Assembly: GCF_001659685.2 (NCBI RefSeq)
Contig: NZ_LXYE02000051.1
Location: 467 to 24,466 of the forward strand
DNA: 24,000 nt
Reading direction: 5' to 3'
Origin: Labilibacter marinus
GTDB taxonomy: Bacteria; Bacteroidota; Bacteroidia; Bacteroidales; Marinilabiliaceae
Positions 5,406 through 23,899 of the stretch are shown piece after piece. A program made the position numbers and the translations under genes. Below the pieces are notes generated by a model. The model saw only the letters and a program-made list of their open reading frames with translations. It ran no database searches and was not told the origin of the DNA. Each line of letters opens with the position of its first letter. Within the stretch, counting starts at the first letter, position 1.

Positions 5406-6319
5406 CTTCGTCCAAATATGCGTTTGATTTGTTCTACCAATGTTTCATGGGTATTGAATTCCATAAATGGAATCCCATACTTTCTGAAGTATTCAATCGT
5501 TTCCTCTCTGTGTTTCCAAGAAATATCCCGAAACTTACTTAGCACTTTCTCTTTGTTTTTAATCATCACCTGAAATTTCCCATCAGAAACCGGAAGGTCA
5601 TGGCTTGGTAAACTCTGCTCCATTTTATCATTTACCATGACAGCTATTACATCGTTGTGCTGAGCTATGGAAGTTAGATACTTAACACCTTGTTCGTTGA
5701 TATTGCTGAAATCACTAATCACTACTACGACATAATCGTGAGTGATGACATTTTTTGCTTTAAACAATACCTTGTTAATAATATCTTGCTTGCCTTGCAT
5801 TCTCTTTCGTTTAACCAAGGCCTGATTTTTTGCCACTATACTTTCAAGCAAATGCATCATGTTGTTTCTGCTTCGCTTAGGTTGGATAGTTTTAAAACTA
5901 TCATCATCAAACACCAAACCTCCTAAACGGTCGCCCGCTTTTAAAACTTTAAAACCACTAATAGCTGCTACCTGCGCTGCCAAAACAGATTTAACTTTCC
6001 CCTCTGAAGCAAAAAACATAGAGGAACTTTGATCCACAATAACAAAACAAGGTCGTTCTTTCTCTTCGTTAAAAACTTTGGTGTGAGTTTGCTTGGTGCG
6101 TGCCGTTACTTTCCAATCAATATTACGTATATCATCGCCATACACGTACTTTCGTACTTCAGAAAAATCTAAACCTCGCCCACGTAGCTTTGAGGCATGT
6201 TTACCCGACAAAACGCTATGAACAGGTTGATTAGGTAACAAGCTGAAATTACTAGTCAAAAATTCAAGACGCATTAATTCATCCAGTGTGGTCGCTATTT
6301 CTTTAGGTAGCTTTTTCAT
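5402..6319 (-). CDS. DUF58-domain protein (VWA-like partner of MoxR)
   Basis: 305 aa with the DUF58-type signature GDDIRNIDWKVTART and a degenerate MIDAS-like VDQSSSM. It sits immediately downstream of the MoxR ATPase. Confidence 0.88.
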   Translation of the reverse strand: MKKLPKEIATTLDELMRLEFLTSNFSLLPNQPVHSVLSGKHASKLRGRGLDFSEVRKYVYGDDIRNIDWKVTARTKQTHTKVFNEEKERPCFVIVDQSSSMFFASEGKVKSVLAAQVAAISGFKVLKAGDRLGGLVFDDDSFKTIQPKRSRNNMMHLLESIVAKNQALVKRKRMQGKQDIINKVLFKAKNVITHDYVVVVISDFSNINEQGVKYLTSIAQHNDVIAVMVNDKMEQSLPSHDLPVSDGKFQVMIKNKEKVLSKFRDISWKHREETIEYFRKYGIPFMEFNTHETLVEQIKRIFGRR

Positions 6320-7428: not shown

Positions 7429-7632
7429 TCACTTCTCAAATTTCTTTAAAAATTTTTTCACTTGCATTTCGGCTTCTTCAGCTGTTTTACCATACTTTTC
7501 TTGGATTTTTCCTTGCAGAATTTTGGCTTCACCATTTACTTTTTCAATATCATTTTTGGTAAACTTTCCCCATTCTTTAATTACTTCTCCTTCTAACTGT
7601 TTCCATTTACCTTTTAAAATATCTTCATTCAT
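7429..7632 (-). CDS. CsbD-family general stress protein
   Basis: MNEDILKGKWKQLEGEVIKEWGKFTKNDIEKVNGEAKILQGKIQEKYGKT matches the CsbD pattern (KGxWxQxxGxxKxxWGxLTDDD...GxxQExYG). I chose the internal Met at 7632 to give the typical 67-aa length; the ORF-track start at 7668 is the alternative. Confidence 0.85.
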   Translation of the reverse strand: MNEDILKGKWKQLEGEVIKEWGKFTKNDIEKVNGEAKILQGKIQEKYGKTAEEAEMQVKKFLKKFEK

Positions 7633-7789: not shown

Positions 7790-8971
7790 TCAAAAGGCCT
7801 GATTAAAATTAAAATAGATTCCACTTGTCTCTCGCCCTATTCCATAATCAAGACGCATGTGCATTCGAGGTTGAAGTTCAAGTCTATAACCAACACCAAA
7901 ATTTGGTAGCCATTGATTAGTATTATCTGCTAAGGTGTCAAAATCAAATATGGTACCTGAGCCAGCCCAAACAACAGCTCCATGCTTGCCAACTTCTCCC
8001 GATTTGTCCAAAAACATATGGCGATATTCAGCCAAAAAGAAAAACATGCTTTCATCACGAAACCTACCCCATTGGTAACCTCGCAAATCAAATGGTGTTC
8101 CTAGTTGGGACATTTCTCCGTAAGGAACATCACCTGCAGCTATCCTTGCCTTTAATTGCCAAGCCAGTGTCATTCCTTCTCTATTAACGGTTTCAAACTG
8201 ACGATAATCAAGTGAATATATCTGGTATTTATTATCGCCTCCTAATCCTGTAGAGTAAAAGGTGCTTACTAAATCCACTAGCATACCTTCTCTTGAATCA
8301 ACAGGAATATCTCGAGAATCATACCTTAGCATTAAACCCAAACCAGAATTCAAAGGTTTATCCTTATATTTTATGTAGTTAGGATCCTCCCCAACACCTG
8401 CACTAGGGTTGGTTCCTTTTGTATAATTATAATCTACATTAAGTCCAACAAAATAATTCTTCTTGAATTGATAAAGAAAACGTGGGTTAAACCACCACCA
8501 CTGGCGATTATAGGACGTAGTTTCTTCACCCTTAGGTTTTTCATAGCCATTTTGATAACCAATTCCCCAATAATGGTCTGGCATATCCTTATACCAGAAA
8601 TCGCCGTAAATTCGTAACTTATCTTCAAACCAATATGAACTTAAAATACCATTTGCAACAACTGCTCCTGTAGTAGTATAAGCTAATGTAACTGGAAACG
8701 AAGATCTTTGAATTAAATCATCCGTTGGATTGGTTTTAAAACTCATTAAACCACCAAAAGCTACCAATCCTCCTAGCTCAGGTGTATAACCAGGAGCAAC
8801 AATTGGGCTAATAATAAATTTTCCTTCAGCCACCTTTTTGTTCCTAATGGAGTCTTTTGCAGCCTTCTTCTGCAGCTTTATGCGTTCCTTATTTGAAACT
8901 TCAGTATCCTGTGCAATTAAAACTTGCGACAGGACAAATAGAGTAGTGATTAAAAATATTTTGATTTTCAT
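7790..8971 (-). CDS. Omp85/BamA-family outer-membrane beta-barrel protein lacking POTRA repeats
   Basis: 393 aa with a signal peptide and an alternating beta-strand pattern. It carries an Omp85-like DSRDIPVDSREG motif and the C-terminal FGVGYRLELQPRMHMRLDYGIG...FNFNQAF, ending in the typical terminal Phe. Confidence 0.75.
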   Translation of the reverse strand: MKIKIFLITTLFVLSQVLIAQDTEVSNKERIKLQKKAAKDSIRNKKVAEGKFIISPIVAPGYTPELGGLVAFGGLMSFKTNPTDDLIQRSSFPVTLAYTTTGAVVANGILSSYWFEDKLRIYGDFWYKDMPDHYWGIGYQNGYEKPKGEETTSYNRQWWWFNPRFLYQFKKNYFVGLNVDYNYTKGTNPSAGVGEDPNYIKYKDKPLNSGLGLMLRYDSRDIPVDSREGMLVDLVSTFYSTGLGGDNKYQIYSLDYRQFETVNREGMTLAWQLKARIAAGDVPYGEMSQLGTPFDLRGYQWGRFRDESMFFFLAEYRHMFLDKSGEVGKHGAVVWAGSGTIFDFDTLADNTNQWLPNFGVGYRLELQPRMHMRLDYGIGRETSGIYFNFNQAF

Positions 8972-9060
8972 TATTCAGTCATTAAAATCAAGTATAAAAT
9001 TATTTCTTCATTGAACATAGGCGTAAAGATTATTTTTCTATAAAACCTTTAACCCCAACT

Positions 9061-9585
9061 TTAGAAATTATATCCTATGGCTATAGATGTTGAATAAGTA
9101 CTATGAACATCTTTGTAATCATAAAATATTCCAGGACTTAGAACCCACTTATCTGACAGATGAAAACCATATTCAGTCCCAAATCTTCCTACAAATAGCT
9201 GGTGATGCTTGTCCATTTCAATCCCAGCACCAACCATAACACTCCAGTGTTCTATTAGATTATACATAGCGCCGACTACAACTATTGTTGCGTTCTCTCT
9301 TATTATGTCCTTTCCCGAAATTAAATAATGATCCAACTCAAAATCTACAACAGCTAACAATTCTAGCTTATGCGATATCTTTCTTATATAGTCTATACCA
9401 ATGGAGGGTACAAAGTAACCTGGTTCACTCGATGATTCTATTTTTACCCCATCAGGCAAGTAAGCATAACCAAAAGCAACTGATATTGTATTTTTGTTAT
9501 CATGTAACTCAGTTTGCTCGTGTTCCTGTGCTTGTACGAGTATATTGGAAAAAAAGAATAAACCTAAAATGATATTCCTTATCAT
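9061..9585 (-). CDS. Small outer-membrane beta-barrel protein
   Basis: 174 aa with a signal peptide (LGLFFFSNILVQAQ), amphipathic beta-strand periodicity and a C-terminal aromatic residue (AIGYNF). Confidence 0.65.
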   Translation of the reverse strand: MIRNIILGLFFFSNILVQAQEHEQTELHDNKNTISVAFGYAYLPDGVKIESSSEPGYFVPSIGIDYIRKISHKLELLAVVDFELDHYLISGKDIIRENATIVVVGAMYNLIEHWSVMVGAGIEMDKHHQLFVGRFGTEYGFHLSDKWVLSPGIFYDYKDVHSTYSTSIAIGYNF

Positions 9586-17799: not shown

Positions 17800-18612
17800 T
17801 TAGTTTTTATACGATTCCGTTAGTTCATCATATAATTCTTTCTTAATTGATTCAAGTCTATTCTGATAGTTGGAATAATTATCGTGTACTTCTGTCATTA
17901 ATTTATTTAGTTTGGTTTTCTTTTTTTGAGAGGCTTCTTCTAACTGCTGCTTTAGTGATTCTAATTTAGCATCACTTTCTTTCTTTTGTTCAAGCAATCG
18001 CTTCTCGGTTAAAATACTCAATGCTTCCATTTTTGATTTAACCTTTTCTATTTGGCTTTTCAAAGACGCCTTCATTTCATCATTAGCATCTTTCATTTCA
18101 TCTTTTAACTCAAGCATTTCTGCTTTCATCTCTTTTGATTCTCTTTCTAGTTGCTCATCAATAATTTCCTTTCGATTCCTTCTAAAAATCATTCCGCTCA
18201 ACTCTTCGATGCGCGTATCAAGAGGTGTTTCCCAACTCTCTTCAATATTAGCTATTAATGCAACTTTACCTGGCGATAATGCTTCTGATACCTCATTCAT
18301 AAATTCAACATCAATACCAGATTTGTGTAGATCGGCGATAACACCTGTCATTCCCCCTATTCCTGCGCCTATCAATACACCAACAGGTCCACCAAGCATA
18401 CCTATTAAACTTCCAGTAAAAAGGCCTATCGAAGTCCCCAAAGGACCGTTTTCTGCAGCTTCTTTTACCTCTACAACATTATCAATACTTTTGGTAACTA
18501 CGGATGTCGCGTAAACACTAATTGAACCTTCTTTATTTAAATCTTTAAGCGCAGATAATCCTTCATATCCTTGTTTTTCTGTATCAAATACAGACACTAT
18601 CATTTTATTCAT
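17800..18612 (-). CDS. DUF1269-like glycine-zipper membrane protein with a long C-terminal coiled coil
   Basis: 270 aa. The N-terminal beta-alpha module (MIVSVFDTEKQGYEGLSALKDLNKEG) precedes a glycine-zipper TM (GLFTGSLIGMLGGPVGVLIGAGIGGMTGVIA). The last roughly 120 aa are a heptad-rich, K/E-rich coiled coil. Confidence 0.7.
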   Translation of the reverse strand: MNKMIVSVFDTEKQGYEGLSALKDLNKEGSISVYATSVVTKSIDNVVEVKEAAENGPLGTSIGLFTGSLIGMLGGPVGVLIGAGIGGMTGVIADLHKSGIDVEFMNEVSEALSPGKVALIANIEESWETPLDTRIEELSGMIFRRNRKEIIDEQLERESKEMKAEMLELKDEMKDANDEMKASLKSQIEKVKSKMEALSILTEKRLLEQKKESDAKLESLKQQLEEASQKKKTKLNKLMTEVHDNYSNYQNRLESIKKELYDELTESYKN

Positions 18613-19044
18613 GATTACTTGGTTTTAAGTAAATATTTGACTTTTTATTTATCAAAAAATAAAAGATAAACATGTCTTATTATAAAATCAACATCATGTA
18701 ATTAATATTTTCATCATCCACCAAAACATTCACATACCACTCTGTTTCATATGAACATACAACATTGTGTCATTTGGCGACATTCTGTTTTAATAATGAT
18801 AATTTGCCTTATTATTAAAGAATAACGGTTAAAATACAGCACAATTAATATCTTTAACTAAGTTTCATAATTAACAAAACAGTATTCAATTTAAATTGTA
18901 ATTTTAGATAACAACATTTTATCAGCTCTGCAGTAAATTGAGCTTATTAAAGCCTTTATGTTCCAACGTAAAAACAAATTAGTCAGATGCTGTGTTTAAA
19001 TGGTCTAACGCTCCATTAAAACACATTGTTTTAAAATCTATAAT

Positions 19045-20100
19045 ATGCAGAACAAAACGATAATAATATCTCCCATTTTAAAACTTGCCGGAATAATAAT
19101 TATTATTGCAGGACTCAAAGTTGCCAATTCTATTTTACTGCCACTTTTGTTAGCCTTATTTGTAAGTATAATCTGTGCACAACCCATATTATGGCTGATT
19201 AAAAAAAAGATTCCTAATTGGCTATCTATACTAATAGTATTATCTGGCTTATTAATTATTCTAATCGTATTAGCAAGTATAATAGGTAATTCACTTTCGC
19301 AGTTTACATCTAAACTTCCAAAGTATGAAGAAGGTCTAAATAATATATTAATATCATTAAGCCATCGGTTTAACTTTATAGAAAGTGGGATAAGTTTTGA
19401 TCAGATAATTGAACAAATAGATACCAGTAAAGTACTACAGTTTTCTAGTAATCTACTTGGTCAATTAGGTAATTTAATGTCAAACTCATTTGTAATTTTA
19501 CTGGTAACCATATTTATTCTTGCAGAAATGAATGTGGCCAACGTAAAAACCAAATTGTTAGAACAAGAATTTAGCCAATCGCTTGATTACTTAAATGAAG
19601 TAGGTAGAAAAATAAGACATTATTTATCGTTAAAAACGCTCATTAGTTTAATTACTGGTATATTAATTACCATTTGGTTGTTAATATTTAAAGTTGAATA
19701 TGCAATACTATGGGGTGTGATAGCTTTTCTTCTAAATTATATTCCGAATATTGGTTCAATTATTGCCGCCGTACCAACTATGCTATTGGCATTAGTTGAC
19801 ATAGGATTTTCTGGCTTTTTATGGACTGGAGTAGGCTATCTACTTGTAAATGTTTTAATGGGAAGTATTATTGAACCTAAGCTTATGGGTAGAGGTTTGG
19901 GATTATCTACCTTAGTAGTATTTATATCGCTCATTTTTTGGGGGTACATTTTTGGTGGTGTTGGAATGTTTTTGTCTATACCAATTACTATTTCGTTTAA
20001 AATAATACTCGAAAAAAATGAAAATACAAAATGGATATCACTACTTCTTTCCTCTGGTGAAGAAGTAGATAAAATGTTAAAAGCAAACACTAAAAACTAA
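19045..20100 (+). CDS. AI-2E-family (PerM/YdiK-like) transporter
   Basis: 351 aa with about 8 TM helices. It has the characteristic NYIPNIGSIIAAVP and GLSTLVVFISLIFWGYIFGGVGMFLSIP regions. Confidence 0.88.
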   Translation: MQNKTIIISPILKLAGIIIIIAGLKVANSILLPLLLALFVSIICAQPILWLIKKKIPNWLSILIVLSGLLIILIVLASIIGNSLSQFTSKLPKYEEGLNNILISLSHRFNFIESGISFDQIIEQIDTSKVLQFSSNLLGQLGNLMSNSFVILLVTIFILAEMNVANVKTKLLEQEFSQSLDYLNEVGRKIRHYLSLKTLISLITGILITIWLLIFKVEYAILWGVIAFLLNYIPNIGSIIAAVPTMLLALVDIGFSGFLWTGVGYLLVNVLMGSIIEPKLMGRGLGLSTLVVFISLIFWGYIFGGVGMFLSIPITISFKIILEKNENTKWISLLLSSGEEVDKMLKANTKN

Positions 20101-20184: not shown

Positions 20185-21603
20185 TTACAAATGTCTTTCT
20201 TCAACAATAATTTTAATCAATGTACCTTCAGGAAGAATTGCATCAGTATTACGACCATTAATCAATGCTATTAAGTCAGATTTTAAAAAACTATTATGAC
20301 GTTTGCATAATGTATCAAAACTATCCCCATGTTTACTTTTAACAACGCGTATTACTTTCTTGGTTATTTTATTCTTTTCAACATCTGTAAGTCTATGAAT
20401 GCTTAATACTGACTCTTTCAGTTTATCTTCTGCCGCTTTGGGGCCAATTCCTATTATCTTAAACATATGATTATCCATATTCATCCAAAGTGTATGAATA
20501 TACATGTCTTTACTTCCTGAATTATCCTGATAAGAAACCAAATAACCTTTATAATCATTTATCTTATAATAGTCTGAAAATAAAGGCTTAACGTCATTAT
20601 TTTTCTCAATGCCACGTATAAACTCAAGAGCCAATGTTTTGGGCGATTTAGACGCATCATCCATACCTAAAAATAAAGCTGCACTTTGATCTTTATTCAT
20701 CCCATTCACCGAAGTTGGTTGGTTCTCGGTATGCCAATCATCAGGAAATTGAAAAGAAAAATTTAATATAGGGTGGATGAAAGTGTTGTTTTCAAAAAAT
20801 CCTTTATCTGGGTTTGCACCAAATAGTAATGAGTTTAACGGTTGAGGAAAATCATTTGATATTTTTTCATTGCTCTCCCAATTTAATTTTGCTGAAGTCT
20901 TAGATATACTTTCTAATCTATCAGGAGTATATGGATGATCATTAAAATAACCTTTCTTCTCTTTTTGTTTAGTTAAGATTTCTATTGATTTGGACAGTCG
21001 TGTTAAAATAGATTTCATTGCATCAGGATCATATCCAGCTTTAGAGGCTAGAGTAACCCCTTCTTCATCCGATTCTTTTTCATGCGATCGACTATAAGAA
21101 GCCAGTAAAAGAGTATTACTTGTTGCAATAGGGGCAGTTAATATTCTACCTACATCTTCATTAATCACTTGTCCAACTATTCGTCCTGGCAATTCGAGCA
21201 ATTTAGGTATTATACTATTACCTAATTGTTTCACGGAGTGCCGATTTTGAGCATGTATAATTTCATGCGCCATAACACATGCTAACTCATCTTCACTAAC
21301 TATTATTGATAAAATACCTCTAGTTACATAGATATATCCACCTGGCGTGGCAAATGCATTGGGTATAGGGTCATCAACAACATGAAATTGATATTCAAAT
21401 AAAGGATTATCTAAGTGAGAGACTAGACGTTGACCAATGGCAGAAATATAGTTTGATAGACTTTCATGATCATAAATACCCATTTCGGCTTCAACCGATT
21501 TTGCACTCTCTGCCCCAAGCCTTTTATCAATTTCTATACTTTGCGAATAGAGACTAGTTGTAGAAAAATATAATAATATTATATAGAATATAAGTGTTTT
21601 CAT
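20185..21603 (-). CDS. Secreted M48-family zinc metallopeptidase with a C-terminal LysM domain
   Basis: 472 aa with a signal peptide and the HExxH motif in MAHEIIHAQNRH. The C-terminal LysM-like sequence is VVKSKHGDSFDTLCKRHNSFLKSDLIALINGRNTDAILPEGTLIKI. Confidence 0.85.
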   Translation of the reverse strand: MKTLIFYIILLYFSTTSLYSQSIEIDKRLGAESAKSVEAEMGIYDHESLSNYISAIGQRLVSHLDNPLFEYQFHVVDDPIPNAFATPGGYIYVTRGILSIIVSEDELACVMAHEIIHAQNRHSVKQLGNSIIPKLLELPGRIVGQVINEDVGRILTAPIATSNTLLLASYSRSHEKESDEEGVTLASKAGYDPDAMKSILTRLSKSIEILTKQKEKKGYFNDHPYTPDRLESISKTSAKLNWESNEKISNDFPQPLNSLLFGANPDKGFFENNTFIHPILNFSFQFPDDWHTENQPTSVNGMNKDQSAALFLGMDDASKSPKTLALEFIRGIEKNNDVKPLFSDYYKINDYKGYLVSYQDNSGSKDMYIHTLWMNMDNHMFKIIGIGPKAAEDKLKESVLSIHRLTDVEKNKITKKVIRVVKSKHGDSFDTLCKRHNSFLKSDLIALINGRNTDAILPEGTLIKIIVEERHL

Positions 21604-21714
21604 AAATGAAGGTCTAAGTAATAAATGAGTAGTTTAAACATTTAAACACCTTTTTATAACGAATGTTCAGTATACCTATTACTGGTAAATCGGTGTTCGT
21701 CATCACTTGTCAGC

Positions 21715-21786
21715 AAAAAAACACGCCAAGCCTTTACTGCACTTGTTTTACTTCATTTTAAAAAGCTAAAAACAAAAGCAGTAAAG
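21715..21786 (-). terminator. Long AT-rich hairpin plus T7 run, possible 3' end of the minus-strand noncoding transcript
   Basis: CTTTACTGC (21732-21740) pairs with GCAGTAAAG (21778-21786), and TTGTTTT (21743-21749) pairs with AAAACAA (21769-21775). On the minus strand the hairpin is followed, after 10 nt, by T7 (21715-21721). The spacing is non-canonical, so confidence is low. Confidence 0.3.
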
Positions 21787-22612
21787 CCCGTCATTAGAAA
21801 TCCGTTTGAACATCTCCGTAAACTCCGGGCTCAATCGTCTTTTCTATTTCCGGGTGCACCAGGTGCAGCTAAACCATGCATAGCCTGGTTGTCATGCTTT
21901 TTGCGTTCCGCCCTCTTCCTCACGGTAGCTCACTTGTATTTTCAAGCCTTTCGTATGCACTTCAATACTTAAAAATACAACCGCTGCCCATATTAGGCTC
22001 GCCTGCGCTCGCCAGTTGCTGCGCTTGTCACACTTTTTGCAATGGCCACTTACCTGCAAACACCTCTCAATATACTAATTCTGCTGGTGCGTGAGTCCTC
22101 TCGCGTTCCTAACCTAATTTACATGAGTTAGTTTATACCTAATAATAGCCCTTCCAATGCGCTTATTTGCATTTTTATTGATAACTGTTTTCTCATCAAC
22201 CGGTATTTTCAGTAACCCACAAAAGCAAAATGCATTCACTCCCGAGCATCCTAATGGTAGTTTTAATAAGTCGGTATTAGGAGGATCCACTCCCTTCATC
22301 CATTTTACTTTCCTTTGCCATCCCTCGCAAAAAATCCGCCAAGCTTGTGTTGGGTGCTAATCACTTATTAACGATATCACTATACAATAATATCACATGG
22401 TATTACCCGATACTTTTTTCATTTCATTAACCGCCCCCAACATATGCCATCCCTCTGTATTCGTACCTCATCCTCTCAGTTTGCCACAGCTGGCTCAACT
22501 CGCAGGCGGCTCGCACTACGTTCCCTTCGCTTCGGTGCAATACGCCATTTTACAAATGCCTGCTTGCTCCTTCGCCCTGCCGCTAGCTGTAGGCACCTTT
22601 ACCAAACTGTTC
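21715..22612 (-). ncRNA. Candidate large structured noncoding RNA(s), unclassified (G+C-rich core; the 5' boundary could lie anywhere up to 22822)
   Basis: There is no protein-like ORF in six frames. Hand count gives 377/840 G+C (45%) over 21781-22620, against 119/360 (33%) in the neighbouring M48 gene. The plus strand is strongly C>G (22 C vs 8 G in 22441-22500; 21 vs 13 in 22501-22560), so a minus-strand RNA would be purine/G-rich. Three G+C-rich blocks (about 21790-22115, 22215-22375, 22430-22612) are separated by AT-rich linkers. Several helices contain G-U pairs only when read on the minus strand. The region is bounded upstream by a strong minus-strand terminator and downstream by a hairpin plus T-run. 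Confidence 0.4.
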
Positions 22613-22822
22613 TTATCTGTGAAAAACTATTCCAGGGAATACTAATGGGCTTTCAAAAGTTAATTTGAAAGAATAAAAAGTAAAGGCCGTGCATAGTTTG
22701 GATGAAATTAAATTTCTTGCATCCAAAGCCTTGACTATTTTTATTCTTTCTGAAATAAAGGGTTGTTTACGCCCGTTAGTAAGCTCCTTATCCATTGTCC
22801 TCGAAAGAAATATTCGCCCATT

Positions 22823-22850
22823 AAAAAAGGCCCCTGATTTCTCAGAGACC
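22823..22850 (-). terminator. Rho-independent terminator of the two-gene unknown operon
   Basis: The minus strand reads GGTCTCTGA-GAAA-TCAGGGGCC followed by TTTTTT. This is a 9-bp stem (two G-U pairs) with a GNRA tetraloop and a U-tract, starting about 30 nt after the stop of the 60-aa ORF. Confidence 0.78.
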
Positions 22851-22882
22851 TCACAACAACCAACCATAAGTAGGGAACCAAC

Positions 22883-23065
22883 CTACTTTTTTTTAACCAA
22901 ACCAACTAAATATCTTAATAGCATTGAAACGACAAAACTAACTACAGTTCCAATAATGGCATAAACTATGGTTTCCATGATGTTTTCTAGAGCCACGCTT
23001 TTAAATAAGCTAACCAGGCACCCTCCTAAAAAACCCGCTTTCCCATCTTGTTGAACCTGTTCCAT
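22883..23065 (-). CDS. Small hydrophobic membrane protein (60 aa), unknown function
   Basis: MEQVQQDGKAGFLGGCLVSLFKSVALENIMETIVYAIIGTVVSFVVSMLLRYLVGLVKKK has one clear TM, possibly a second weak one, and a KKK tail. It is immediately followed by a canonical terminator. A 31-aa version starting at the internal Met is possible. Confidence 0.5.
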   Translation of the reverse strand: MEQVQQDGKAGFLGGCLVSLFKSVALENIMETIVYAIIGTVVSFVVSMLLRYLVGLVKKK

Positions 23066-23143: not shown

Positions 23144-23899
23144 TTAAGGCATATCAACAGCTACCATGGCCAATGATCTGCTATCTTTATTGTTGATTAT
23201 ATAAAGCTCACCATTTACAGTTTGATAGTACTCTATACCCAATACCACAAACACAGGCTGGGTACTATTGGCCGAAATGGACGCGTTAGTATCAATCGTA
23301 GAAGCTACTTTCGAAGCAATATCAATAGCTGCAGATTGAACAACATCTACTTCAAATTCCGAATTGCTAAAGTCAACCCCTGCAACACCTACTGTTAAAC
23401 GAGCTTGTGTAGCTCCTTCAACCTGCTCTAATTCCATACTCGGATCAAAAAATTCTACAGAAACCTGTGCCTGACCAGTAGCTCTATCAAAAGAAACTGT
23501 GTAAGTAGCTTTAATAACCTCATCCAAACCTGTTTCTCCATTAAACTCAAATCCTTGGAGCAAATTCAAATCTCCATCAATCACATTTCTTTCACCTCTA
23601 CCATTAGTGGTATCCGCCTGCACTACTTTCAACATCGCAGTAGTCAAACGACTAGCCACCTTCTTATCTGCCGACTGTGAAATAGGAGCCTTAAAAACAC
23701 CTCTTAAAAGCTTACTCGCTTTTCCTGCTGCACCAAATTCAGCACCATTCTCTCTGGTCCTCGCGAATGCCGGATCATTTTTGATTCTATCACCATCCAC
23801 ACCACCTTTTGCTCGTGCCAGGTATTCGCCACCACTCTTGTAAAACGACAAATCGCCAATGCGACCTTCTAACTTAATAATTCCTTTTTGCCTTGCCAT
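23144..23899 (-). CDS. Hypothetical protein with a basic N-terminal half and an acidic beta-rich C-terminal half
   Basis: I start at Met17 of the track ORF (ATG 23899..23897): MARQKGIIKLEGRIGDLSFYKSGGEYLARAKGGVDGDRIKNDPAFARTRENGAEFGAAGKASKLLR... I recognise no enzymatic motif. Four hand-counted lines give 104/240 (43%) G+C, above the window norm. Confidence 0.7.
   Translation of the reverse strand: MARQKGIIKLEGRIGDLSFYKSGGEYLARAKGGVDGDRIKNDPAFARTRENGAEFGAAGKASKLLRGVFKAPISQSADKKVASRLTTAMLKVVQADTTNGRGERNVIDGDLNLLQGFEFNGETGLDEVIKATYTVSFDRATGQAQVSVEFFDPSMELEQVEGATQARLTVGVAGVDFSNSEFEVDVVQSAAIDIASKVASTIDTNASISANSTQPVFVVLGIEYYQTVNGELYIINNKDSRSLAMVAVDMP

Follow-up and report, generated by a model that had tools for sequence, protein, structure and literature searches.

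A probable large structured RNA of a Bacteroidota family without an Rfam match, encoded next to a conserved 251-aa protein gene in Labilibacter marinus

The DNA analysed here (the window) is a stretch of 24,000 nucleotides (nt) from Labilibacter marinus, contig NZ_LXYE02000051.1. Near its right-hand end the minus strand carries a gene for a conserved protein of 251 amino acids (aa), a gene for a 60-aa hydrophobic protein, an intrinsic terminator, some 0.9 kb without any sizeable open reading frame (ORF), and an M48 peptidase gene. A first-pass annotation, made from the sequence letters, had proposed that the ORF-free region at 21715-22822 is a large structured minus-strand RNA of an unrecognised family. 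This reading is supported by the absence of an Rfam match, the lack of codon periodicity, wide conservation and covariation, and we consider it very likely that the region is the gene of a conserved structured RNA whose family Rfam lacks. It is also probable that the product is a ~0.9-kb minus-strand RNA at 22605-21682, that neither Rfam 15 nor the literature searched contains a match to its Bacteroidota family, and that it would have its own promoter and serve its carrier element in trans as an architectural RNA. The parts of the locus are listed here.

21682..22605, minus: the RNA proper, ~924 nt including both strands of the closing helix P1 at its ends; P1 from homology and folding, family membership from nhmmer and a covariance model
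22594..22605, minus: P1 5′ strand UUGGUAAAGGUG, pairing with 21695-21682 in the minimum-free-energy and centroid folds
21682..21695, minus: P1 3′ strand CACCGAUUUACCAG, preceded by the conserved motif AUGACGAACACC
21682..21902, minus: conserved 3′ domain, matched by covariance model R1
21730..21786, minus: long internal hairpin of the 3′ domain (helix 36 in alignment A2, helix 3 in alignment A6)
21981..22003, minus: central conserved motif GGCGAGCCUAAUAUGGGCAGCGG, shared with loci L017 and L018 through a 78-nt blastn match
22130..22434, minus: variable middle region, made up of the AT-rich linkers 22381-22440 and 22141-22200 and the middle G+C-rich block
22435..22593, minus: 5′ G+C-rich domain, carrying GCGAGCCGCCUGCGAGUUGAGC (22514-22493) and the recurring loop motif UGAGGUACGAAU (22470-22459)
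22613-22826: AT-rich spacer with a promoter-like motif
22620..22632, minus: promoter-like motif AAUAGUUUUUCAC, which includes TAGTTTTT at 22629-22622
22827..22852, minus: intrinsic terminator of the 251-aa/60-aa operon, 11 pairs and a T-run
22883..23065, minus: gene for the 60-aa hydrophobic protein, second gene of a conserved module
23144..23899, minus: gene for the 251-aa conserved protein, which marks loci carrying the RNA

The functional unit differs from the extent first proposed, running 33 nt past the left edge; the primary transcript may start ~10-15 nt upstream of 22605. By contrast, the composition that had drawn attention to the region was borne out by base counts. Over 21781-22620 the G+C content is 44.9% (given as 45% before), compared with 32.5% in the M48 gene (33% before) and 34.8% in the whole window, and the highest G+C among all 924-nt segments of the 24 kb belongs to the one starting at 21676. 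The plus strand is 61% pyrimidine over the same interval and has the reported excess of C (243) over G (134). The three G+C-rich blocks are likewise present, separated by AT-rich 60-nt bins at 22381-22440 (33%) and 22141-22200 (32%). As had been claimed, there is no substantial ORF: none exceeds 84 aa, all three stop codon types occur and every frame on both strands is interrupted, with core stop counts by frame of 9, 10 and 16 on the plus strand and 13, 22 and 24 on the minus strand. The 84-aa ORF (22613-22867, minus) covers the terminator together with the AT-rich spacer that precedes the RNA, has neither a family match nor a counterpart in relatives, and is probably not a gene.

Related loci were fetched via the 251-aa gene, through exact-protein look-ups and one metagenome scan, and are numbered with the prefix L. 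A family of ~850 nt was recovered with nhmmer in L088, L096, L069, L063, L051 and L029, partially in L037, and also in L189, which is Flavisolibacter sp. BT320 (Chitinophagaceae); the 251-aa proteins of the loci of this ~850-nt family are nearest to Chitinophagaceae proteins. The window is tied by nhmmer to L017/L018, L088, L096, L051 and L069 at E values of 4e-7 to 9e-3, and to L187, a contig of a Marinilabiliaceae-like metagenome-assembled genome, at E 1.4e-54 over the 3′ 340 nt. L187 is the closest relative and aligns only in these 340 nt and in 5′ motifs, among them the shared GCGAGCCGCCUGCGAGUKGAGC. With the ~850-nt family and L017/L018 the window matches at three places, namely 21902-21682, the central motif GGCGAGCC-UAAUAUGGGCAGCGG (22003-21981) and the 5′ end GGUAAAGGUGCC. 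The central motif is also found in the Chitinophagaceae-type family (as GGCGAGCAAAAAUAAUGGGCAGCGGGUGGA), in L187 and in a subgroup comprising L057, L044, L091 and L097, whose members have the 5′ motif, the central motif and the 3′ tail in common. The motifs of the 5′ domain recur in L187 and in the same four loci, and UGAGG(A/U)ACGAAU occurs in Chitinophagaceae-type RNAs.

A covariance model of the 3′ domain (R1, 156 positions) gives the window 98.3 bits (E 1.5e-26); outside its training set it gives L187 73.9 bits and L189 148.7 bits. The window RNA combines the R1 domain at 21902-21682 and the central GGCGAGC...AUGGGCAGCGG motif at 22003-21981 with a P1 that has a GGUAAA-type 5′ strand and an ACACC-N2-UUUACC-type 3′ tail (22605-22594 with 21695-21682). 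It also lies (22605-21682, minus) downstream of, and co-oriented with, the 251-aa gene (23899-23144, minus), an arrangement seen in all of the loci, at least 20, that have a recognisable RNA. Relatives come from Marinilabiliaceae, Chitinophagaceae and other Bacteroidota metagenome contigs, and the RNA family spans at least two classes, Bacteroidia and Chitinophagia. Conservation, which the first-pass annotation had named as a check, extends far beyond the strain. R1 gave no significant match on other G-rich downstream regions (L019, L020, L023, L024, L027, L032, L066, L075, L087, L098 and others), and the ties of the family to such R1-negative regions are shared short motifs, blastn/nhmmer chains and composition only.

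Among the R1-negative regions is a second Marinilabiliaceae type (L019, L020, L186) that occupies the same position and shares the GCAAAAG-NN-AUGACA...GCACC-N-GAAGG 3′ motifs. Its G-rich elements (L019 8300-9500, L020 7100-7870, L186 8880-10010) are 77-86% identical between copies. The 5′ module of this second type (UUUCAGCCUGGGGGUUUGGGG...) is also found upstream of the window-type RNA in L187 (6170-6520), where it contains a short tandem repeat, AAAGGUUAAAGGAUAAGGG, at ~6240-6300.

Substitution patterns do not resemble those of a protein-coding gene. In the 15 pairwise comparisons of six full-length relatives, substitutions favour no codon phase (chi-square p 0.30-0.99), so that the 3-nt periodicity check returned none; gaps of 1-2 nt, which shift the frame, are common, each sense frame has 12-22 stops, and no ORF is conserved. 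We nevertheless considered a decayed protein gene (pseudogene) or a gene in an alternative code, because the plus strand of the window has open stretches of 67-82 codons, the antisense strand of relatives is open for up to 245 codons and public gene callers place ORFs on it (for example 113 aa at L189 10253-10594). These open stretches fall on the pyrimidine-rich antisense strand, however, and their frames are not conserved. All stop codon types are found in all frames, ORFs of the window region have no Pfam or PHROG match, and coding would leave the compensatory base-pair changes described below unexplained. The coding or pseudogene reading was ruled out by the even phase distribution, the 1-2-nt indels and the 12-22 stops per sense frame, and is extremely unlikely. 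Antisense ORFs and ‘hypothetical protein’ calls of 99-243 aa (L189 10253-10594, minus; L088 5486-5785 and 5962-6471; L096 7165-7896) are probably annotation artefacts.

Base pairs of the RNA covary well above shuffled and slid controls. A six-sequence alignment (A2) has an RNAalifold consensus of 209 pairs, in which 93.4% of cells form standard pairs and 54 of the 209 pairs show double changes, compared with 16.6 ± 3.1 in column shuffles (0 of 500 reached the observed value) and 8-16 when the partners were slid by 1-3 columns. An 11-sequence alignment of the 3′ domain that includes the window and was fitted to the model (A6) has 95.1% of cells paired and 64 double-change cells, compared with 18.4 ± 3.3 after shuffling and 6-17 after sliding. 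The long hairpin of the 3′ domain has compensatory two-sided changes in 13 of its 14 pairs.

Covariation is also seen in P1, the closing helix (GGUAAA/UUUACC) that joins the 5′ and 3′ ends, for which there are at least five compensatory variants. It reads CCGGUAAA/UUUACCGG in most Chitinophagaceae-type RNAs, GCAGGUAAA/UUUACCUGC in L029, AAGGUAAA/UUUACCUU in L189, CAGGUAAU/AUUACCUG in L057 and L044, CGGUUUA/UAAACCG in L187, GUUAAA/UUUAAC in L097 and UUGGUAAA(GGUG)/(CACC)GAUUUACCAG in the window. Moreover, many G-U pairs are invariant, and the opposite strand would have A-C mismatches in their place. These pairs therefore suggest that the G-rich strand, the minus strand of the window, is the functional one, which fits the strand first proposed. 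A further part of the structure consists of ‘ladder’ helices formed by two purine-rich strands, in which GA/AA mismatches alternate with Watson-Crick pairs that stand singly or in twos; several of these pairs covary. The ladder helices may be tandem sheared G-A modules. A loop motif, UGAGGNACGAAU, is recurrent.

Within the 3′ domain, GCAAAAAGCAUGACAACC and GGCUUGGCGUGUUUUUUUGC pair to form an outer helix around a small CCCGNNGGG-type hairpin and the long hairpin; the tail that forms P1 comes next. The U-run at 21715-21722 is the 3′ strand of the outer helix and its partner is GCAAAAA (GCAAAAAGCAUG); the equivalent in other members is GCAAGCAGCAUG/CAUGAUUGCUUGC. The hairpin at 21786-21730 with its T-run had been taken for a second terminator-like element bracketing the region. 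We replaced this reading, as the hairpin is an internal, conserved helix of the 3′ domain.

Mini-modules of ~100-140 nt resemble the 3′ domain (R1 E 0.0016-0.013) and have the order CCAAAAGGAAACGGAAUAAG-UCCCGAAGGG-hairpin-CAUUAUGCCGUAGUCUUUUGG followed by a U-run. They occur at L069 6242-6382 and 7554-7647, L033 6100-6198 and 7454-7553, and L095 2296-2382. In L069 the pair forms direct repeats, spaced ~1.3 kb, on either side of the large RNA; in L033 the copy at 7454-7553 is just upstream of the RNA and that at 6100-6198 another ~1.35 kb upstream, whilst L095 has one upstream copy. These flanking copies hint at a modular RNA building block that duplicates.

The RNA does not correspond to any known family that we searched for. 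Rfam 15 cmscan of the window and 14 related loci returned no match at the gathering score anywhere in the window or in the RNAs of the relatives, and nothing in 21500-23000 fell below E = 0.28. Permissive searches (E up to 1-5) of the window region, L088 and L187 gave only chance-level matches to microRNA and small-RNA models (E ≥ 0.14 overall). ARAGORN found no tRNA or transfer-messenger RNA (tmRNA) in the window, and for the housekeeping RNAs (RNase P, tmRNA, signal recognition particle (SRP) RNA, 6S, rRNA, tRNA) there was neither a covariance-model nor an ARAGORN match. The Rfam check thus gave no confident match to a known family, and the reported lack of tRNA, tmRNA, RNase P, SRP, rRNA and group II signatures agrees with these searches. 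Guide RNAs (HEARO/IscB omega RNA, TnpB reRNA, IS110 bridge RNA) and retron/DRT noncoding RNAs (ncRNAs) had no Rfam match, and no cognate IscB, TnpB, IS110 or reverse-transcriptase gene is present in the window or related loci. Phage and plasmid collections contained no DNA similar to the window, and no prior description was found in the literature searched (open-access papers and bioRxiv).

These searches also bear on the idea of a catalytic or self-mobile RNA, either an intron-like element without an ORF or a new large ribozyme. The size of the RNA, the closing helix that joins its ends, its GA-rich non-canonical helices, its presence on a mobile element and a synteny breakpoint exactly at the RNA 3′ end would all suit such an element. 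However, Rfam models of group I introns, group II introns and ribozymes gave no match in the region even at E = 5. No ORF longer than 84 aa, and none for a reverse transcriptase or homing endonuclease, lies inside; the flanks are intergenic and vary by locus, and no host gene is interrupted. We regard a catalytic or self-mobile RNA as improbable. At L024 26-126, upstream of a 251-aa gene in one metagenome contig, a group II intron domain V/VI was matched with 43.5 bits, which exceeds the gathering score; it is unrelated to the RNA.

The RNA is flanked on both sides by genes on its own strand, and each side suggests a way in which it could be part of another transcript. The M48 start codon lies 79 nt past the RNA 3′ end on the same strand, as would be expected of a cis-acting leader or riboswitch-like 5′ untranslated region (UTR) of the peptidase gene. 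Synteny contradicts this reading: M48 orthologues in Carboxylicivirga and Saccharicrinis (72-76% identity) are found without the element, and other loci have unrelated genes downstream, frequently on the opposite strand. Nucleotide similarity to these two genera resumes at ~21673-21669, in the M48 promoter region directly past the RNA 3′ end. The M48 leader was dropped on the grounds of these orthologous loci and is hardly credible. Relative to the same two genera the window also has ~2.5 kb of extra DNA at 17800-20100, with a DUF1269-like gene (17800-18612, minus) and an AI-2E family transporter gene (19045-20100, plus), whereas in Carboxylicivirga and Saccharicrinis M48 is directly followed by the ABC1 kinase gene.

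On the other side, the RNA could be an extended structured 3′ UTR of the 251-aa/60-aa operon, or a tail processed from it, given that it is always downstream of and co-oriented with the 251-aa gene and, in Marinilabiliaceae, directly follows the 60-aa gene. Yet the terminator that had been noted for the upstream operon is a good one (minus strand 22852-22827, 11 pairs and a T-run) and comes after the 60-aa gene, the RNA is closely preceded by a conserved promoter-like motif, and at many loci opposite-strand genes (DUF6876, HipA with a helix-turn-helix (HTH) partner, DUF1016) stand between operon and RNA. We consider a 3′ UTR or operon tail unlikely. The Bacteroidetes -7 box is TAnnTTTG, which TAGTTTTT resembles, and a similar AATRGTTTTYCA motif stands at the same relative place upstream of the RNAs of relatives; we infer that the motif at 22632-22620 is a promoter. 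Because of the conserved AATRGTTTTYCA motif, the separating terminator and the opposite-strand genes found between operon and RNA elsewhere, the RNA would have its own transcription.

The setting had been described as lying between two operons. Instead, the RNA belongs with the upstream module of 251-aa and 60-aa genes, and in a related locus this module sits inside an integrative island. In L017 a 30-nt direct repeat is found at 9365-9394 and 18386-18415, with ~9.0 kb between the copies. The copy at 18386-18415 forms the 3′ end of an intact tRNA-Lys(UUU) gene (18390-18465, minus) beside a tyrosine integrase gene. The island contains genes for 66-aa, 251-aa and 60-aa proteins, an insertion sequence (IS) fragment, the RNA, small ORFs (some with PHROG matches), an excisionase-like HTH_17 gene, a 389-aa gene and the integrase. 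The repeats, the tRNA-Lys and the integrase define a tRNA-integrated island with the RNA as cargo. A tRNA-Met lies just outside it (9147-9221). L019 and L187 have the same set of genes, in the order integrase, 385-392 aa, HTH_17, ..., DUF5675, 67-68 aa (minus), 251 aa, 60 aa and RNA, the RNA being the last feature before unrelated genes; the window shows the same order of 251-aa gene, 60-aa gene and RNA.

Given this setting, the element might instead act as DNA, as an origin of replication or transfer, a recombination site or another single-stranded-DNA structure of the island. Its terminal place in the islands of the window, L019 and L187, the strong strand asymmetry and the nearby integrases would be in keeping with this. 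On the other hand, strand-specific helices that covary over ~900 nt, together with conserved G-U pairs and GNRA-like loops, go far beyond known origins or attachment sites, the attachment repeats of L017 are the 3′ end of tRNA-Lys with the element internal to the island, and the upstream promoter-like motif is conserved. A DNA-level function is very improbable. A viral origin was set aside in view of the IMG/VR searches reported below, and no capsid or tail genes were seen.

The protein that marks these loci has 1934 homologues in Bacteroidota, none with a Pfam domain, the best being 98% identical and from Labilibacter marinus; several copies per genome are often found. No Pfam, NCBIfam, PHROG or PADLOC match was obtained for it, and a PDB profile search was uninformative. 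Its first ~60 residues are nearly invariant and basic (MARQKG...RTRENG.EFG; alignment A1). An AlphaFold2 model has a predicted local distance difference test (pLDDT) score of 82.5, with an N-terminal 40 residues of low confidence followed by helices and a beta-sandwich. Low confidence is what would be expected of an N-terminal segment that becomes folded on binding a partner. The 60-aa gene, whose product has no confident family match, follows the 251-aa gene in L018, L019, L020, L186, L187 and L190. This arrangement of a 251-aa and then a 60-aa hydrophobic protein is that of Marinilabiliaceae; elsewhere the 251-aa gene is followed by genes for a DUF5675 protein and a ~78-aa protein. A 2026 preprint presents DUF5675 as a peptidase C82-like lysin candidate (10.64898/2026.04.11.717860). 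In most loci from L023 to L101 this gene (phrog_1501) comes after the 251-aa gene together with a small membrane protein (e.g. L051 3421-3816), and L021 (5098-5574, 5826-6281) also has a holin-like 158-aa protein (phrog_3427). Taken together, the DUF5675 gene and the small membrane or holin-like genes that accompany the 251-aa gene resemble a lysis-type cassette.

A blind composition scan found G-rich, G+C-enriched, stop-rich 400-nt segments downstream on the strand of the 251-aa gene in ~41 of 58 loci, against 1 downstream on the other strand and, upstream, 2 of ~40 on the same strand and 2 of ~40 on the other, although some small-offset positives may span gene junctions. The interval between the 251-aa module and the RNA is an insertion hot-spot (L186 7172-8738, L019 7037-8074, L096 6544-7086, L088 4009-4359, L018 1927-2600), where a GIY-YIG nuclease, DUF6876, a DUF1016/YhcG nuclease, a HipA toxin with its HTH partner and IS remnants (DDE transposase) are found. 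One metagenome contig, PNRO01000063.1 (L032 ~8300-9000; L075), has two 251-aa modules ~55 kb apart, each with its own ORF-free G-rich element. The two elements have up to 60% G+C and are 80% identical over ~1 kb, and only the short motifs GAGGUACG, GAAGGACACAG and CCCGAAGGG are common to them and the window family. Two modules with two elements on one contig point to a repeated mobile module rather than a single housekeeping gene.

Several points weigh against the reading of the locus as a self-standing RNA gene with a role on a mobile element. The transcription strand, the ends and the promoter of the RNA are those that we infer from sequence. Fold z-scores, which the first-pass annotation had put forward as a check, are moderately better than those of shuffles (-3.1, -3.9 and -2.9), but they are modest and alike on both strands, so that folding energy neither confirms the structure nor identifies the strand, and in this respect the check was uninformative. 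The covariation tests draw on 6-11 related sequences, and the fitting of A6 to the model favours that structure. All relatives were reached through the 251-aa gene, so that its linkage with the RNA was assessed from one side only. Alignment of the window with the Chitinophagaceae-type RNAs is limited to the P1 strands, the central motif, the UGAGGNACGA motif and the 3′ domain, and ~300-500 nt of the window RNA are without a homologue in the collected loci; the middle region (22130-22434) has no aligned homologue among them. The window ends 100 nt upstream of the 251-aa gene, and the integrase and attachment sites reported for the island are those of L017. In IMG/VR the 251-aa family is absent and 84 pattern matches of two conserved RNA motifs were all attributed to chance by nhmmer; hence the carrier looks like a small integrative island rather than a recognised prophage. 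Lastly, the 251-aa protein is at most a candidate RNA-binding protein: Foldseek of its model against PDB and BFVD gave no informative structural match, and the profile searches revealed no such link either.

With these points in mind, we propose the following mechanism for the minus-strand RNA. It would be transcribed from its own promoter, separately from the 251-aa/60-aa operon, and would act in trans as an architectural RNA, either as a protein-binding scaffold or as a self-assembling RNA particle for the element that carries it. The likeliest protein partner would be the adjacent 251-aa protein, through its nearly invariant, basic N-terminal 60 residues. The setting would work as it does for GOLLD or ROOL in prophages, without membership in either family. 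This specific functional reading, an architectural RNA serving the element, is drawn by analogy and is tentative. A wider proposal, which we offer as speculation, is that the RNA represents a new class of giant ornate RNAs that is the hallmark cargo of widespread, unrecognised, small tRNA-integrating islands of Bacteroidota, where a particle with the 251-aa protein or an RNA-only multimer would be needed for transfer, lysis timing or phage interference. As part of it, such islands might combine an integrase, an excisionase-like HTH protein, a lysin/holin-like cassette, the 251-aa protein and the RNA, although we think this doubtful.

To our knowledge very few bacterial ncRNAs longer than ~500 nt have extensive conserved structure, namely rRNAs, group I and II introns, OLE, GOLLD, ROOL and HEARO, and Bacteroidota is a phylum for which we know of few large RNAs. 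Large RNA classes missing from Rfam are still to be found in the long G+C-rich intergenic regions of AT-rich Bacteroidota, and the RNA explains spurious antisense ‘hypothetical protein’ calls. Moreover, there are cultured hosts of the RNA, Labilibacter marinus and Flavisolibacter sp. BT320, and a fixed genetic partner (the unannotated 251-aa family with ~1900 homologues) that together with the mobile setting suggests testable functions. Each of the known large RNAs listed above has been a source of new biology, the latest case being the RNA-only nanocages (PMC12286853).

Among known systems, GOLLD is a prophage RNA found near tRNAs, with a conserved 3′ region, a variable 5′ region and a function that is unknown (PMC12286853). 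Its Rfam model did not match our RNA at any threshold tried. Both RNAs are ~800 nt or more, highly structured, with a conserved 3′ and a poorly conserved 5′ region, and both, ours at L017, are on an integrated mobile element by tRNA genes and lysis functions. They differ in host, here a member of the Bacteroidota, in carrier, here an integrase island of ~9 kb that was not recognised as a phage, and in structure, as our RNA has a terminal closing helix and many GA-type ladder helices. ROOL, a large ornate RNA of rumen origin in prophages and phages, often near tRNAs and with no known partner or function (PMC12286853), had no Rfam match either. Both are large ornate RNAs, but they differ in size, motifs and taxa, and the conserved 251-aa neighbour suggests a possible protein partner here. 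OLE is ~600 nt long, encoded by a chromosomal gene, confined to Gram-positive extremophiles and anaerobes, and has the partners OapA, OapB and OapC. Our RNA had no Rfam match to it, and its neighbours (the 251-aa, 60-aa and M48 genes) are unrelated to oapA, oapB and oapC. The likeness lies in a large structured RNA whose neighbouring genes encode possible partner proteins, either small membrane proteins or unknown ones. A passage in one paper on OLE describes a GA-rich kink-turn-type motif used in protein recognition (PMC9723947), and the GA motifs of the window family can be read as possible kink-turns. Finally, as with tRNA and tmRNA anchors of genomic islands, a structured RNA gene stands at the edge of a variable, integrase-bearing region. 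The difference is that in L017 the tRNA-Lys is the attachment site and the large RNA is internal cargo, carried rather than targeted.

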